In this document: piece after piece, positions 23,986 through 46,787 of the stretch
How the letters are laid out: the number at the start of each line of letters is the position of its first letter
How positions within the stretch are numbered: position 1 is the first letter of the stretch
NCBI GenBank assembly: GCA_964016885.1
Contig: OZ024751.1
Coordinates: 18,414,001-18,478,000 of the forward strand
Source: Eledone cirrhosa
Taxonomy: Eukaryota
Reading direction: 5' to 3'
Length of the DNA: 64,000 nt
Program-made: the position numbers and the translations under genes
The notes under the pieces: model-generated
Seen by the model: the letters and a program-made list of their open reading frames with translations, nothing else
Databases searched by the model: none
What the model was told of the DNA's origin: nothing

Positions 23986-24167
23986 AACGAAGGAAATGTG
24001 GTAAGGAACCAGGTGGACCATAACGCACCAAAGTACTCAATACTTGAGGTAGTAGAGTGGGTAATAGGAACCAGTAAGACCCCGACAGCTGAGCTCAAGC
24101 CGTATCGACGGCTAATTCTGCCGTCGAAACGGCTTGAGCTCAGCTGTCGGGGTCTTACTGGTTCCTA
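23986..24167 (-). mobile_element. Foldback cassette family B, copy 1
   Basis: A tail of about 78 bp plus a hairpin with about 48-bp arms; TA flanks. Confidence 0.85.
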
Positions 24168-25538
24168 TATATATATATATATATATATATATATATATAT
24201 ATATGTATGTATATCATTGTATATAAATTTGTGTATACCAAAGAGAAAGAGGAGGAAATATAGTGTGTTTGTGTGAATGTATGTGTGTAAGTGTGTGTGT
24301 GTGTGTGTGAATATATATGTATGTATGTGTGTAAGTGTGTGTACACCCAGCTGTTGAACGTCTGTCTCTATTTAAAGACGTTATACACTGATCTCTAAAC
24401 AGCCTCTCAGGTCACCTGTCTCTCTTAATCACTTTCCTGACTACACATACACACACACATACATACACACACACAGACAGAAAGACACACACACATACAA
24501 ACACAAACAGACTTACACAAACACACATACTCACACAAACAGACACACTCACACACACACACAGACAGACTCACACATATACATACGTACACACATATGC
24601 GTTCACGCCACTCTCGCGTATGATACAAGTGTGTGTATGTGTATAAATATATATATAAATACATATATATACCTATAATATGTATATATACATATATATA
24701 CGCACACACATATATATATATAACTATTATTTGTTACCCCGTATATATATATATATATATATATATGTGTGTGTGTGTGTGTGTTTCTTTGTGTGCATAT
24801 ATATAATTATGTATGTATATATATATATAAATATGTATATATATATATGTGTGTGTGTGCTTGTGTAAGTATATATATATATATATATATATATATATAT
24901 ATACATGTGTGTGTGAGTGTTTGTGTGTAAATATATAGACACACACCTGTTCATCATATTTGCTTGTTCTGCTTTCAGATCATTGAGCCAGTTACACCTA
25001 CTCTCACCAACACACACACACACTCACACACGCTCGCACACACACACACACACACACACACACACACACACACACACACACACACACACATACACACACA
25101 GACATACACACATTCTCTTTGTCTTTGTCGCTCTATCTGTCTTTCCTCTCGCTCACTCTTTCAGTCTCAATACGTCGAGTATATACAAACATAGTTCAAC
25201 TTCCTCGCAATTTCAAAATTGAAACTCCCTTCAGAGTTATTCAGATCATCAGAAGGAAGCAAAGACAAAACTCATGCGAGCTGTGTTGATCGAATCATCT
25301 CTCCTTCTCTCTCTCGCTCTCTCTGCATGTATGTTTATATATATATATATATATATATATATATATATATATATAATAAAAAAAGACGGTTTCGTTTGTT
25401 CATTCTTATTTATTCTGTTATACGTATTTCAAAGAATTAAGAAAAAGTCAGCAGATTTTCAATCAACCAACTTTCTTCAATTGAATATGTATACTTTATT
25501 ATACATATATATATATATATATATATATATATATATAA

Positions 25539-25642
25539 TAGTAGAACACTGGAGGGTAATATCCGTAGTAGTAGAGCACTCTGTCCATGGGACCAGTTTA
25601 GTAGAAGTAGTTTCACAGCTAACTGTTGTGAAACTACTTCTA
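25539..25642 (-). mobile_element. Foldback cassette family D, short copy
   Basis: Same tail as 26120-26187, with a short hairpin tagaagtagtttcaca..tgtgaaactacttcta. Confidence 0.8.
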
Positions 25643-25971
25643 TATATATAGAGAGAGATATATAATACAATGTACAGTGTAAATGTGTAAATAATAATCA
25701 AAGAATGTTTCGTTAGTTATAACATTTTTGAAAAATTATACACACTTTGGTTATTTACATTGTATTTCGGCTCTGTATTTTGTAATATACATCCAGCTAT
25801 ATGCATACTTGTAACTGGGTAATATTTAATATTACTCACTATATATACATATATACATATATATATAGCTCCGAAGTAAACAGACTCACCTGCGCACTTC
25901 GTTGAGTGCTCTATCCTGCATACTGATGTGTCGGTAAGCAACCAACACACACACACACATATATATATATA

Positions 25972-26187
25972 TAGAAGTGGTTACACAACAGTTAGTTCAC
26001 GATACCGAGAACAATTGTTTCACCTTAGCGGATCCTCAGCTCGTAATCGCGAGCTGAGGATCCGCTAAGATGAAACAATTGTTCTCGGTATGGTGAACTA
26101 ACTGTTGTGTAACCACTTCTACCTAACTTGTCCCATGGACTGAGTACTCTACCACTACGGATATTACCTTCCAGTGTTCTACCACTA
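25972..26187 (+). mobile_element. Foldback cassette family D with a hammerhead in each arm
   Basis: Arms of about 72 bp meeting near 26046, a tail of about 65 bp, TA flanks. Further copies at about 26697-26780 and 46870-47027. Confidence 0.85.
26050..26087 (+). ncRNA. Minimal hammerhead ribozyme
   Basis: CGAG-CTGAGGA-TCCGCTAAGAT-GAAA-CAATTG-TT^CTCG, with a palindromic stem III. Mirror copy at 26006-26043 (-). Confidence 0.78.
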
Positions 26188-26426
26188 TATATATATATAT
26201 ATATATATATATATATATATATATATATATATATATATATATATATATATATATATATATATATATATATATATATATATATATATAATATATATATATA
26301 TAAGCAGAAGGGATATTCAATTTGTTGGTAATTCAATATAACTGATTCAGAGCACTCCACAGATTTCCTGGAGTATAATATTCAATGATATTAAATAAAT
26401 GGAAACTATATTTATAATACCATATT

Positions 26427-26487
26427 TATTCTATTATATATATTTCAAGGGTACCAAAACTTTGGTACGCTTTCATCAGATAAAATA
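26427..26487 (-). ncRNA. Minimal hammerhead ribozyme (family A)
   Basis: TATTTTAT-CTGATGA-AAGCGTACCA..TGGTACCCTT-GAAA-TATATA-TA^ATAGAATA. Confidence 0.8.
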
Positions 26488-43540: not shown

Positions 43541-45820
43541 CACAACCTTATCAAGAGCTTTGCTGCACATTCCTAATTGTATATCGTTAGCTTGGCCACA
43601 GCCAAAACTTCGATTTTACTAAACTTCCATTTGTATATATATATATATATATATAAAAGTCTAAAGTCTGTCTCAAGCCAGAAGGCTCATTTGGCCGGTG
43701 CTTATCCTGGTGTCATGGTGTGGAGCGACTGAGAGTACAAGACTCCCCCCTGGACAGGACGCCATATATATATCGCAATATATATATATATATATATAGA
43801 TATAGATATAGATATATACAATAAGCAAGGAGTCGACGTGTGATAAATAGCTGTCACATTACTTTCAAACCCCTTCATACTGAAAAACACAATAGATAAT
43901 ATAGTCCTAGATATACCATGTCCGATAAAACGTTAGCTGTGTGAGGGCTAACGATCGATCTGGAAAGGATGAAAGGACTAACTGATCTCGACAGGATTTG
44001 AACTCAGACCCCAGAGAGCTAGAAGAAATACCACTAAATATGTTATATGAGGTTCTAACAATTCTACCAAATTGCAGTCTTAATGCTGTGTAAGAAAACG
44101 CAACATTTCTTTCTGTTCAACTTAGAACGTTTTGTAAAACACCCACTCCTCGTCGAGAAATGCCAAGAAATCAATAAAAAACACATAAAATATCACGAAA
44201 TAACACAAACACATACACACACACCCCACACACACAAACAAAAAAATAAATCCTCAAAACAAAGCAACCCTTTCCACTCACATAAAAAAACATAGCTAAA
44301 AGCAAATCACCCTCAAACGAGACAGATAATCCCAAGTTACCTGCTTCTTTTAAATCCGTAACTTGTGAGACATTTTGGCACCACGAAATATTATTTCCTC
44401 CTCCTCTTCCTCCCCCCCTCCTCCTCCTCCTCTTCTTATTCCTCCTCCTCCTCCTCCTCCTACCCTTCTTCTTCTTCTTCTTCTTCTTCGTCATTATCAT
44501 CATTGTAATCATCATCGCCATCTTCATCACCGCCATCGTCATCGTCATCGTCATCGTCATCGTCATCATCATCATCATCATCATCGTCGTTATCATCGTC
44601 GTTATCATCATCAACACCACCACCATCATCATCATCTCCATCAAAATTATCATCATCATCATCATCGTCAACATCCCCACCACCACCACCATCATCATCA
44701 CCATCATCATCATCCTATTTTCTTCTTCTTCCCCATCTTCTAATACTTGACAAAATAATTCACTAGTTTATTTTTTTTTTATTTATTTTATCTTATTGTT
44801 GTTATTGTTGTTATAGTTGTTATTGTTATTGTTGTTATTGTTGTTATTGTTGTTATTGTTCGCGATTTGTTGGTTGTTGTGATGTTGTTAGTTACTGTTG
44901 TGGTGTACGAATGTCAGAACATACTATAATGCCACAACCACCAGTACCACAACTTCTAGTATTACTACTACTACTGCTATCATTACAGTAGTAGTAGTAG
45001 TAGTAGTAGTAGTAGTAGTAGTAGTAGTAGTAGTAGTAGTAGTAGTAGTAGCAGTAGTAGTGGTAGTAGTAATAGTAGTAGTAGTAGTGGTGGTGGTGGT
45101 GGTGGTAGTAGTAGCAGCAGCAGCAGCAGCAGCAGTAGTAGTAGTAGTAGTAGTAGTAGTAGTAGTAGTAGTAGTAATAGTAGCAGCAGTAGTGGTAGTA
45201 GTAGTAGTAGTAGTAGTAGTAGTAGTAGTAGTAGTAGTTGTAGTAGTAGTAGTAGTAGTAGTAACAAGAGACAGAGTGATCTCCTGAGCTACTAGAGACA
45301 ACAGATAAACCTCCCTCCACCAACACCACCATTTGTGACATTGGACCCTGTTGTAGCCCTAGCTATATTAAACCAACGTAATGCTTATTGTCATTACTGG
45401 GACTCCTTTGATCCTAGGTCAGCTGAACAAGGTTTGAACTGGTCAGCAACAACAATAACAACAATATCATATATGTCAGCCCAACAAGGGTCGAAATGGA
45501 CTAGACGACAGCAACAACAGTGACAACAGTAACATATGTGACCATCTACAGGTGGTCTTAGAAAAGGTCTACCAGGTACACATTTTATCATTGTCTTGAT
45601 CAGTTAACAGGCAGACCCCCCCCCCCCCGAACTCACTGCTATGTCAGCAAGTGCAGAATGCTGGACATTCCCCATCACCTCTCCCTTTCGCTCTCTCTCT
45701 CACACACACACACGTACATACACGCTCACACGTTCACATAAACACAAAAATACGCTTAATTACACACACACACACACACACACAAACACACACAATCACA
45801 CACACACACATATATATATA

Positions 45821-46032
45821 TAGTAATAATAATAAATTTGAAGACTAAAATCCAAAGAGGGTTCGATAAGAATAAATATATATCAAATATATAAGAAATC
45901 TAGGGCAAATATTTATTGAAATAACAGATTAAAGTTTAAGCAAAGAATCGCTGCTTTCACCCTTAACGGGATCTTAACGTTAAGAGTGAAAGCAGCGATT
46001 CTTTGCTTGAACTTTAATCTGTTATTTTAATA
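45821..46032 (-). mobile_element. Foldback cassette family E
   Basis: A tail of about 95 bp plus a hairpin centred near 45975. Relatives at 23552-23627, 50229-50305 and 56897-57274. Confidence 0.8.
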
Positions 46033-46050
46033 TATGTATATATATATATA

Positions 46051-46230
46051 TCATCATCATCCTCATCATCATTTTACGTCCGCTTTTCCCTGCTTGAAAG
46101 GGTTGGACGGGCTATTCAGCACAGCATCTCTCCACTTGTCACGGTCCTTCGTCATCTCCTTCAGCGATATGAGGTCTGCTCTCACCACCTCCGCCCATGT
46201 TTTACGTGGTCTACCTCTACCGCGTCTTCC
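46051..46230 (-). mobile_element. 3' end of a second RTE-clade LINE with a (GAT)n tail, in (TA)n
   Basis: Minus strand translates GRRGRGRPRKTWAEVVRADL..KDRDKWRDAV and is followed by (TGA)n. Confidence 0.75.
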
Positions 46231-46595
46231 TTATATATATATATATATATATATATCGTTTCTGAATTTGTTTAGCAAGATTCTTTATCTGAAAACGTGT
46301 GTTGAGACCGATATTGTTATGCTTTGGGAGGGTCATGTTGCCAATGAGAAACACACGCACCAGTTGCTTTCACTCCAATTTATTATAAGTTAAATTTATA
46401 AATTTAAGAATTTATGAATTTCCGGTTGGTTGATTAGTTCCATAACCGGACGGTTGTTCATATATTGTCAAAGTTCTTTCCTCGCACATTCTATGACCTC
46501 TGCAGTGACTGGGGATTTTTTTCTTTGTTTTTGTGCCTCTCCTTTGTTCTGTCCTACGCCATCTTGTTTTTGTGTTTATATATATATATATATAT

Positions 46596-46787
46596 AACGA
46601 AGGAAATGTGGTAAGGAACCAGGTGGACCATAACGCACCAAAGTACTCAATACTTAGGGTAGTAGAGTGGGTAATAGGAACGAGTAGGACCCCGACGGCT
46701 GAGCTCAAGCCGTTTCGACGGCTAATTCTGGACGTATTAGCCGTCGAAACGGCTTGAGCTCAGCCCTCGGGGTCCTACTCGTTCCTA
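46596..46787 (-). mobile_element. Foldback cassette family B, copy 4
   Basis: Junction ctggacgtattagcc; TA flanks. Confidence 0.85.

Follow-up and report, generated by a model that had tools for sequence, protein, structure and literature searches.

We analysed a 64,000-nt stretch of the Eledone cirrhosa genome (assembly GCA_964016885.1, contig OZ024751.1, positions 18,414,001 to 18,478,000 of the forward strand; hereafter the window), which holds four short palindromes set in (TA)n tracts. We found that these palindromes are 5′-truncated insertions of an abundant, (TA)n-targeting Penelope-like element (PLE), and that the repeat family they represent is the pseudo-long terminal repeat (pLTR) of this element. 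Each palindrome very likely consists of two independent complementary DNAs (cDNAs). Probably, the two were primed by the nicked strands of the (TA)n tract, one at each of two fixed sites, A and B, and then joined head to head, and it is likely that both were copied from the same RNA molecule.

Positions in the pLTR are numbered from B, the last A of ..CTTCGTTA at the end of the long arm, which is -1; negative numbers count back from B and positive numbers lie downstream of it in full-length copies. The short-arm end, A, is then at -81, or at -80 if the T common to it and the TA tract is included. The four copies occupy 23985-24167, 29001-29205, 32107-32304 and 46595-46787 of the window, with (TA)n tracts on either side of each. 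An earlier note on this DNA had described four copies with common outer ends, and all of them are present: the long arm ends in ..CCTTCGTTA joined to TA, the inverted short arm ends in ..GTTCCTA joined to TA, and the latter end corresponds, as described, to an internal site of the long arm (CCTA/TTACC) in 4/4 copies. The hairpin centres, reported to differ in every copy, also read as given, with a 1-nt overlap, a 6-nt insert, a blunt joint and a 2-nt insert in copies 1 to 4 respectively, and both arms of a copy carry the same subfamily variant, CCAGTAAG in copies 1 and 2 and CGAGTAGG in copies 3 and 4. In copy 1, the long (B) arm lies on the minus strand at 23985-24120 (pLTR -136 to -1, subfamily s1), with its B end joined to (TA)n, and overlaps by 1 nt the short (A) arm on the plus strand at 24120-24167 (-128 to -81). 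Copy 2 is made of an A arm on the minus strand (29001-29060, -140 to -81), an untemplated 6-nt junction insert assigned to no strand (29061-29066) and a B arm on the plus strand (29067-29205, -139 to -1); this long arm has site A at 29125, includes the 79-nt tail and contains a predicted 3′ half of a hammerhead ribozyme (GAAAC, stem III and the GUC site). Copies 3 and 4 have B arms of subfamily s2 on the minus strand (32107-32245 and 46595-46733, both -139 to -1) and A arms on the plus strand, at 32246-32304 (-139 to -81, blunt junction) and at 46736-46787 (-132 to -81, preceded by the 2-nt insert).

The parent element was recognised because some copies extend upstream into a 3′ untranslated region (UTR) and an open reading frame (ORF). 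A protein search of the genome gave 104 scored matches, which were 97-100% identical; in many of them a frame of 770-820 codons is open, and twenty loci (19 insertions) carried a circularly permuted unit of 3531 nt. In full-length copies, B runs directly into a 91-nt leader and a 717-aa ORF, so that the first ATG lies 91 nt downstream of start site B and 170 nt downstream of start site A. The ORF encodes a reverse transcriptase (RT; YRDD) followed by GIY-YIG (VIY...YIG), and the 109 homologues that were aligned keep this arrangement. Neither Pfam nor a PDB sequence search matched the 717-aa ORF; its best homologue carries PF01541. The AlphaFold model of the protein had a pLDDT of 93, and its top two Foldseek matches were TERT structures (3du5 and 9swn, E ~1e-8), with DRT and retron RTs close behind. 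RWR stands in place of the RWK motif (R 100% and W 98% conserved, with K the majority residue in homologues), DKT replaces DKG at residue 117 (94-100% conserved), and CxCX5C (residues 572-580), CxxC (670-673) and CxH (698-700) have cysteines and histidines conserved at 99-100%. The CCHH motif is absent, the one cysteine between GIY and YIG being conserved in 8% of rows. By these motifs the PLE appears to belong to the Hydra clade. Partial tandems that form pseudo-LTRs were found both as the permuted unit and as a tandem array (L158/L159), and the inverted 5′-truncated copy with a tail at one end only was present as well, the tail measuring 79 nt, as compared with 30-40 bp in typical PLEs, a typical and not a defining value.

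We then counted the two ends in the whole genome (3.0 Gb, 1,796 contigs) with exact patterns of arm end joined to TA. B ends numbered 21,662 and A ends 16,238, the two sites being 79 nt apart, and the reversed-pattern controls for either end had no match. A third site at -40, whose last five bases are those of B, was joined to TA only 19 times, and therefore the ends are set by position and not just by the presence of TA in the RNA. The fixed internal priming site proposed in the earlier note was borne out by the A ends; its other start, placed at the RNA's 3′ end, was not, since B continues into the 5′ leader and the ORF and both starts are internal. Pairing was scored in the first 100 listed B ends (96 parsed) and the first 100 listed A ends (98 parsed), overlapping sets that are first matches along one contig, C1, and not random genome draws; pairings missed by the script were called by hand. 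Among the 98 A-anchored copies, 87 had a B partner, 4 a partial or complex B partner and none an A partner, while 6 were solo and 1 was unresolved. Among the 96 B-anchored copies, 67 had an A partner, 1 had a B partner, 23 were solo and 5 were complex or unresolved. Free choice of start site would make half of the partners like-with-like. Paired copies adjoin TA tracts at both ends, the anchor patterns themselves requiring TA on one side only. Most insertions were mini-palindromes of 100-215 nt; scaling 63/96 mini-palindromes to 21,662 B ends, we infer some 14,000 of them genome-wide as a lower bound. In full-length insertions, the full-length arm can be either A or B. Rare copies with two B ends exist (L041, L005, L008 and L244), and a few arms (L033:447, L151:7112 and L259) have an outer end that joins TA elsewhere, at about -144, -12 and -106.

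At their inner ends, both arms met a common limit. Among arms that reached -130, 54/60 B arms and 72/80 A arms ended by -145, and among 446 arms of all ages, a set that includes ORF-selected loci, 259 ended at -145 to -131 and only 2 at -150 to -146. The claim that the junction is different in every copy was mostly borne out, 84/94 junctions being distinct; their positions are not random, both arms piling up 130-145 nt upstream of B. Passing of this stop was coupled between the arms. In the anchored samples, clean pairs comprised 54 in which both arms stop, 6 in which both pass and 1 split pair. We then followed a list of 1,023 subfamily-s2 arms that run beyond the stop and took 40 further loci in its order; here, the partner arm passed in 24, stopped there in 1 and ended before -130 in 4, while 1 locus was B+B and 10 were solo or unresolved, so that a stop-passing arm had a stop-passing partner in 24/25 informative pairs. 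The same was seen in the 19 ORF-selected insertions, whose partner arm passed the stop in 17/17 resolvable cases. The stop is therefore a property of the template molecule, and it fits a physical RNA end. Template jumps also begin there, at -139 (L106), -140 (L033) and -143 (L212), and in L111 and L119 both arms of the mini-palindrome end at -99, the predicted hammerhead cut. We consider it likely that the two arms share one RNA template with a physical 5′ end at the stop.

Whether that end is a transcription start is a closer call, and we favour this only slightly. The region was compared with the Inr and TATA consensus motifs and has a TATA-like box at -169 and Inr-like sequences TCATTT at -146 and TTAGTC at -142. 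Other PLEs start transcription in the pLTR (PMC3846280). An apparent excess of G before -140 was considered as a cap mark and disappeared against a control position; it is not used as support. Many long arms (L147, L150, L152, L157, L158, L160, L165, L075, L204 and L214) end between -230 and -300, which may reflect a second, weaker stop, and at L212:372-1028 the B arm is a 257-nt unit (-143 to +114) in tandem, as if the polymerase had jumped repeatedly from the 5′ end to a 3′ end at +114 or had copied a small circle.

One alternative concerns the stop only, and would make it a polymerase roadblock on a longer RNA, either the fold of hammerhead loop II or a bound protein, and not an RNA end. 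In its favour, the stop is immediately 5′ of one strand, the 3′ one, of the predicted hammerhead stem II, and no cap-G signal was found. A stochastic pause, however, would act on each arm separately, yet passing was common to both arms (24/25); the upstream edge is sharp and template jumps begin at the stop. A stable RNA conformer encountered by both polymerases is possible. We regard a roadblock as unlikely.

A shared template was also indicated by sequence variants. Arms of one copy agreed at three diagnostic sites in 93/97, 90/94 and 80/81 copies, when 37-42 were expected. The mismatch between arms within a copy was 2.4%, compared with 6.6% for shuffled arms (the lowest of 500 shuffles was 5.4%), and left arms did not form a group apart from right arms. 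Among 16 long insertions, the own arm was closer than the best other copy in 12, tied in 1 and worse in 3, and it was closer than the median copy in 16/16; private variants occurred in both arms of L150 and L156. Continuous homogenisation of the arms was discarded as the cause of this concordance, as 84 rare variants were in one arm only and 10 in both. Two separate RNAs from one source locus, with an asymmetric protein dimer that starts on one of them at A and on the other at B, would account for the subfamily concordance, would need no strand displacement and would agree with the few discordant arm pairs, including L008. Even with a single array as their source, such RNAs should frequently have given long arms with short partners; with ~90% of arms stopping, long arms were nonetheless paired with long arms in 24/25 cases, which makes separate RNAs as the usual templates rather improbable.

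Several observations weigh against a single RNA with a 5′ end at the stop, copied from both sites. Two cDNAs on one RNA would require strand displacement over ~60 nt. Discordant pairs were seen at the diagnostic sites (4/97, 4/94 and 1/81), and the B+B copy L008 has arms of different subfamilies; therefore two RNAs are used at times. Long arms are paired with a stopped arm in L077, an unbiased copy, and in L245. The TATA-like box is poorer in subfamily s2, and no clear pile-up of arm ends was found at -80. The cap-G signature was negative: in a tally made by hand among the first 100 matches of each listing, a lone G preceded -140 in 14 loci, set against 38 direct junctions, and the control position -135 in 9, set against 22 (p=1.0). 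In the assay of Anolis carolinensis Poseidon, start-site use showed no difference between strands, pairing lying outside its scope (PMC11167929). To these is added the sampling of pairs along one contig.

The strict pairing of ends also bears on the proposal that both cDNAs start at B and that the tail is later cut from one arm by endonuclease resolution (PMC8557442). Tail removal would likewise give one tail per insertion, and rare B+B copies do exist. A trimmed arm, however, would need precise rejoining to the same flank. Exact junctions of an A end with (TA)n number 16,238 in the genome, and the A end occurs solo in 6/98 copies; in addition, a pair of start sites was observed directly in vitro with Poseidon (PMC11167929). 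We consider this route very unlikely.

The junctions were examined in 111 distinct mini-palindromes, of which 94 were parsed cleanly and 17 were left out because of indels or over-extension; the first 30 loci, biased towards the junction of the query, were excluded from frequencies. The commonest of the 84 distinct junctions was seen 3 times, and 5/8 recurrent ones occur across subfamilies, so the few clonal junctions expected of an amplified unit were not what we found. Junctions were blunt in 16 mini-palindromes, had 1-6 nt of microhomology in 43 and inserts of 1-15 nt in 35, and arm ends lay within 5 nt of each other, giving near-symmetric centres, in 51/94. In L108, L202, L230, L173 and L198, the inserts were copied from nearby arm sequence or were A/T runs of at least 14 nt. 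These inserts resemble products of what we take to be polymerase-theta end joining. The 5′ reach of the A arm exceeded that of the B arm by more than 5 nt in 27/94 mini-palindromes, and that of the B arm was the greater in 16/94; arms overlapped in 86/94, and in the remaining 8/94 the B arm lay wholly inside the tail, without overlap. Because the A arm can reach further 5′ and the arms need not overlap, neither arm was copied from the other.

This last point goes against self-priming, put forward for the inverted junctions of PLEs and there with an antisense template (PMC3846280), in which a strand is folded onto itself and serves as its own template. The microhomology at many junctions and the near-symmetric centres are compatible with a fold-back, which would also yield identical arms. 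Under self-priming, nevertheless, the A arm must be contained within the B arm, contrary to the 27/94 and 8/94 copies above and to L239, L241, L243 and L276, where long A arms are paired with B arms of 34-92 nt. It is contradicted for those copies and could survive as a minor route; as the general one, it is very unlikely. An assembly fold-back artefact was ruled out by the 2.4% arm differences, the fixed unequal ends and a short-read contig that spans a hairpin centre. Contigs of four sequencing runs, which represent at most 2 samples of 1 study, showed no differences from the window over unique stretches and are thus probably not independent of it; among them, none extended across an insertion. 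Finally, although the palindromes are short, high-copy and TA-flanked with inverted arms, and although an identical end pair was found at two loci (L213 and L225) with a slight excess of repeated pairs (80 distinct A and B inner-end pairs observed vs 86 shuffled), so that mini-palindromes may occasionally be duplicated later, a preformed MITE (miniature inverted-repeat transposable element) amplified as a unit by a DNA transposase is hardly credible as the main route, given the distinct, non-clonal centres, the recurrent junctions that cross subfamilies, the subfamily variants shared by the arms and the unequal arms that run unbroken into an element with RT and GIY-YIG instead of a DNA transposase, in keeping with the view of the earlier note.

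Taking these data together, we propose the following course of insertion by two cDNAs made on one RNA. The endonuclease of the element would nick the two strands of a (TA)n tract; from each nick, reverse transcription would be primed on a common RNA, at one or the other of the two fixed internal sites, both cDNAs presumably running towards the RNA 5′ end. Most RNAs would have their 5′ end ~140-144 nt upstream of B, so that the cDNAs would run off after ~60 and ~140 nt, and their 3′ ends would be joined by end joining into a new palindrome at each insertion. The idea that the palindrome is rebuilt each time by two cDNAs of one RNA, already advanced in the earlier note, is supported by the rule of one A and one B end and by the coupled passing of the stop. 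The ~10% of arms that pass the stop would come from RNAs without an end there, either circles closed by the hammerhead or read-through multimers, and would give long and tandem copies. By analogy with Anolis Poseidon, a protein binding site probably lies downstream of B. Mini-palindromes lack everything downstream of B and would therefore be dead ends, not MITEs.

The long copies may come from templates of another form. In 18/19 full-length insertions the stop is passed a second time, only L149 ending at -139, and comparison of the four units of a tandem array over 3450 sites gave 0-2 differences; both observations fit circular or multimeric templates, which have been proposed before (PMC4209133). 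The minimum-energy fold of the pLTR is a type I three-way junction with the core UUGAGAA / GAAA / GUC, a fold no better than that of shuffled sequences (z=0.13), and an Rfam search detected no hammerhead. The predicted cut lies between -100 and -99 and the 5′ half of the ribozyme at -183, and mini-palindromes stop short of this 5′ half. The U3-A8 core is a published PLE variant (PMC4209133). A circle as template of the long copies is plausible, at somewhat under even chances; read-through of existing arrays or later tandem duplication could also have produced them. Circular templates would again imply strand displacement. Tandem arrays of four full units were observed at G000:C1:91476617-91487271 and C1:437.20-437.21 Mb, with periods of 3542 and 3531, and are candidate sources of long copies.

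Much of this picture has precedents. It is usual for PLEs to have an inverted truncated copy and, at one end, a tail of 30-40 bp (PMC8557442, PMC3846280), and Hydra-clade PLEs insert in (TA)n (PMC8557442). Like them, the Eledone element has a single ORF with RT followed by GIY-YIG, the RW(R), DKT, CxCX5C, CxxC and CxH motifs without CCHH, a (TA)n target, an inverted 5′-truncated copy and a one-sided tail (PMC8557442). Their pLTR also has a hammerhead, for which the Eledone pLTR holds a candidate. Unlike them, it has a unit of 3.53 kb and not generally <3 kb, a tail of 79 nt and not 30-40, insertions that are mostly mini-palindromes of 100-215 nt, and a predicted hammerhead with a U3-A8 core and a long loop II (PMC8557442). 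In Anolis Poseidon (PAc), nicking and extension affect both target strands, and the tail is delimited by two internal sites at which RT starts (PMC11167929). The two elements share these two internal starts, an AT-rich target and starts near the 5′ end of the coding RNA; they differ in that PAc belongs to another PLE clade and has its sites within the ORF, in contrast to the upstream positions found here, and the available text on PAc does not treat inverted pairs, a one-of-each rule or run-off mini-palindromes (PMC11167929). In Schistosoma, hammerheads occur as opposite-strand pairs 100-700 bp apart (PMC4209133). Non-LTR retrozymes are also short, abundant, pLTR-derived, hammerhead-related and PLE-dependent, but are head-to-tail, contain whole ribozymes and are thought to be self-propagating (bioRxiv 10.64898/2026.07.22.740005; PMC4209133). 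The mini-palindromes are head-to-head, carry half a ribozyme only and are apparently made anew each time. With MITEs they share a short, high-copy, hairpin-forming and TA-flanked structure, and they differ from them in their unequal ends, non-clonal centres and retroelement parent. In L1 twin priming, a single RNA is copied into two cDNAs, each primed by one of the two nicked strands, and microhomology serves to join them head to head; one primer acts at the poly(A) end and the other at a variable internal position, and the segments do not overlap, giving an inversion. Here, by contrast, both sites are fixed and internal and the arms overlap in most mini-palindromes, giving an inverted duplication.

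For PLEs, an inverted pLTR with a one-sided tail and a pair of start sites in vitro have both been described before (PMC8557442, PMC11167929), and the picture of the earlier note largely re-derives that account. The strict one-of-each rule, the same-template coupling and the run-off mini-palindromes were not found in the literature searched, which included few subscription papers and no Repbase. The origin of the inverted repeats and one-sided tail of PLEs has been called open (PMC8557442), and the published ideas are antisense-RNA self-priming (PMC3846280), endonuclease resolution (PMC8557442) and two in vitro starts without a model for inverted pairs (PMC11167929). The tens of thousands of young insertions described here separate these ideas through their non-nested arms, one-of-each ends, common variants and common 5′ limit. 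More tentatively, PLE insertion could be an obligate two-headed reaction, in which one ribonucleoprotein holds two RTs at fixed register on a single RNA, one per strand, and the form of the RNA decides the outcome: mRNA would give only mini-palindromes (~14,000 or more), and ribozyme-closed circles would give full-length and tandem copies. If so, the tail, the inverted pLTR and the tandem arrays would come from one mechanism, and a class of apparent animal MITEs would be by-products of retrotransposition. Repeat annotation would probably class these hairpins as MITEs or unknown repeats. The intact 717-aa ORFs and the simple (TA)n target make a direct test feasible.

The window holds other pieces of related sequence. 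At 32556-32646, a related pLTR forms a diverged (~77%) palindrome, likewise head to head, whose centre falls at the same position; this is probably an older family that behaves in the same manner. A solo A-end stub of ~25 nt from a diverged subfamily is found at 46825-46849, in the TA tract to the right of copy 4, and an old rearranged fragment at 53353-53474 consists of -207 to -149, an inverted 14-nt piece of the tail and -50 to -4. A stretch of 37-47 nt in the 3′-UTR of the PLE (subfamilies s2 and s3; L016:873-918) resembles (80-89%) the terminal part of a different, very abundant repeat, present at no fewer than 15 places in the window (for example 30493-30529), which may reflect capture or a common origin. 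Two other retroelements were observed on the minus strand. At 17824-23067, an element of the long interspersed nuclear element type has two frames in register: the first, of 593 aa, has no Pfam match, and the second, of 1153 aa, contains endonuclease, RVT_1 and zf-RVT. A 452-aa RT fragment of a different retroelement (RVT_1, weak DUF6451) lies at 8389-9744.

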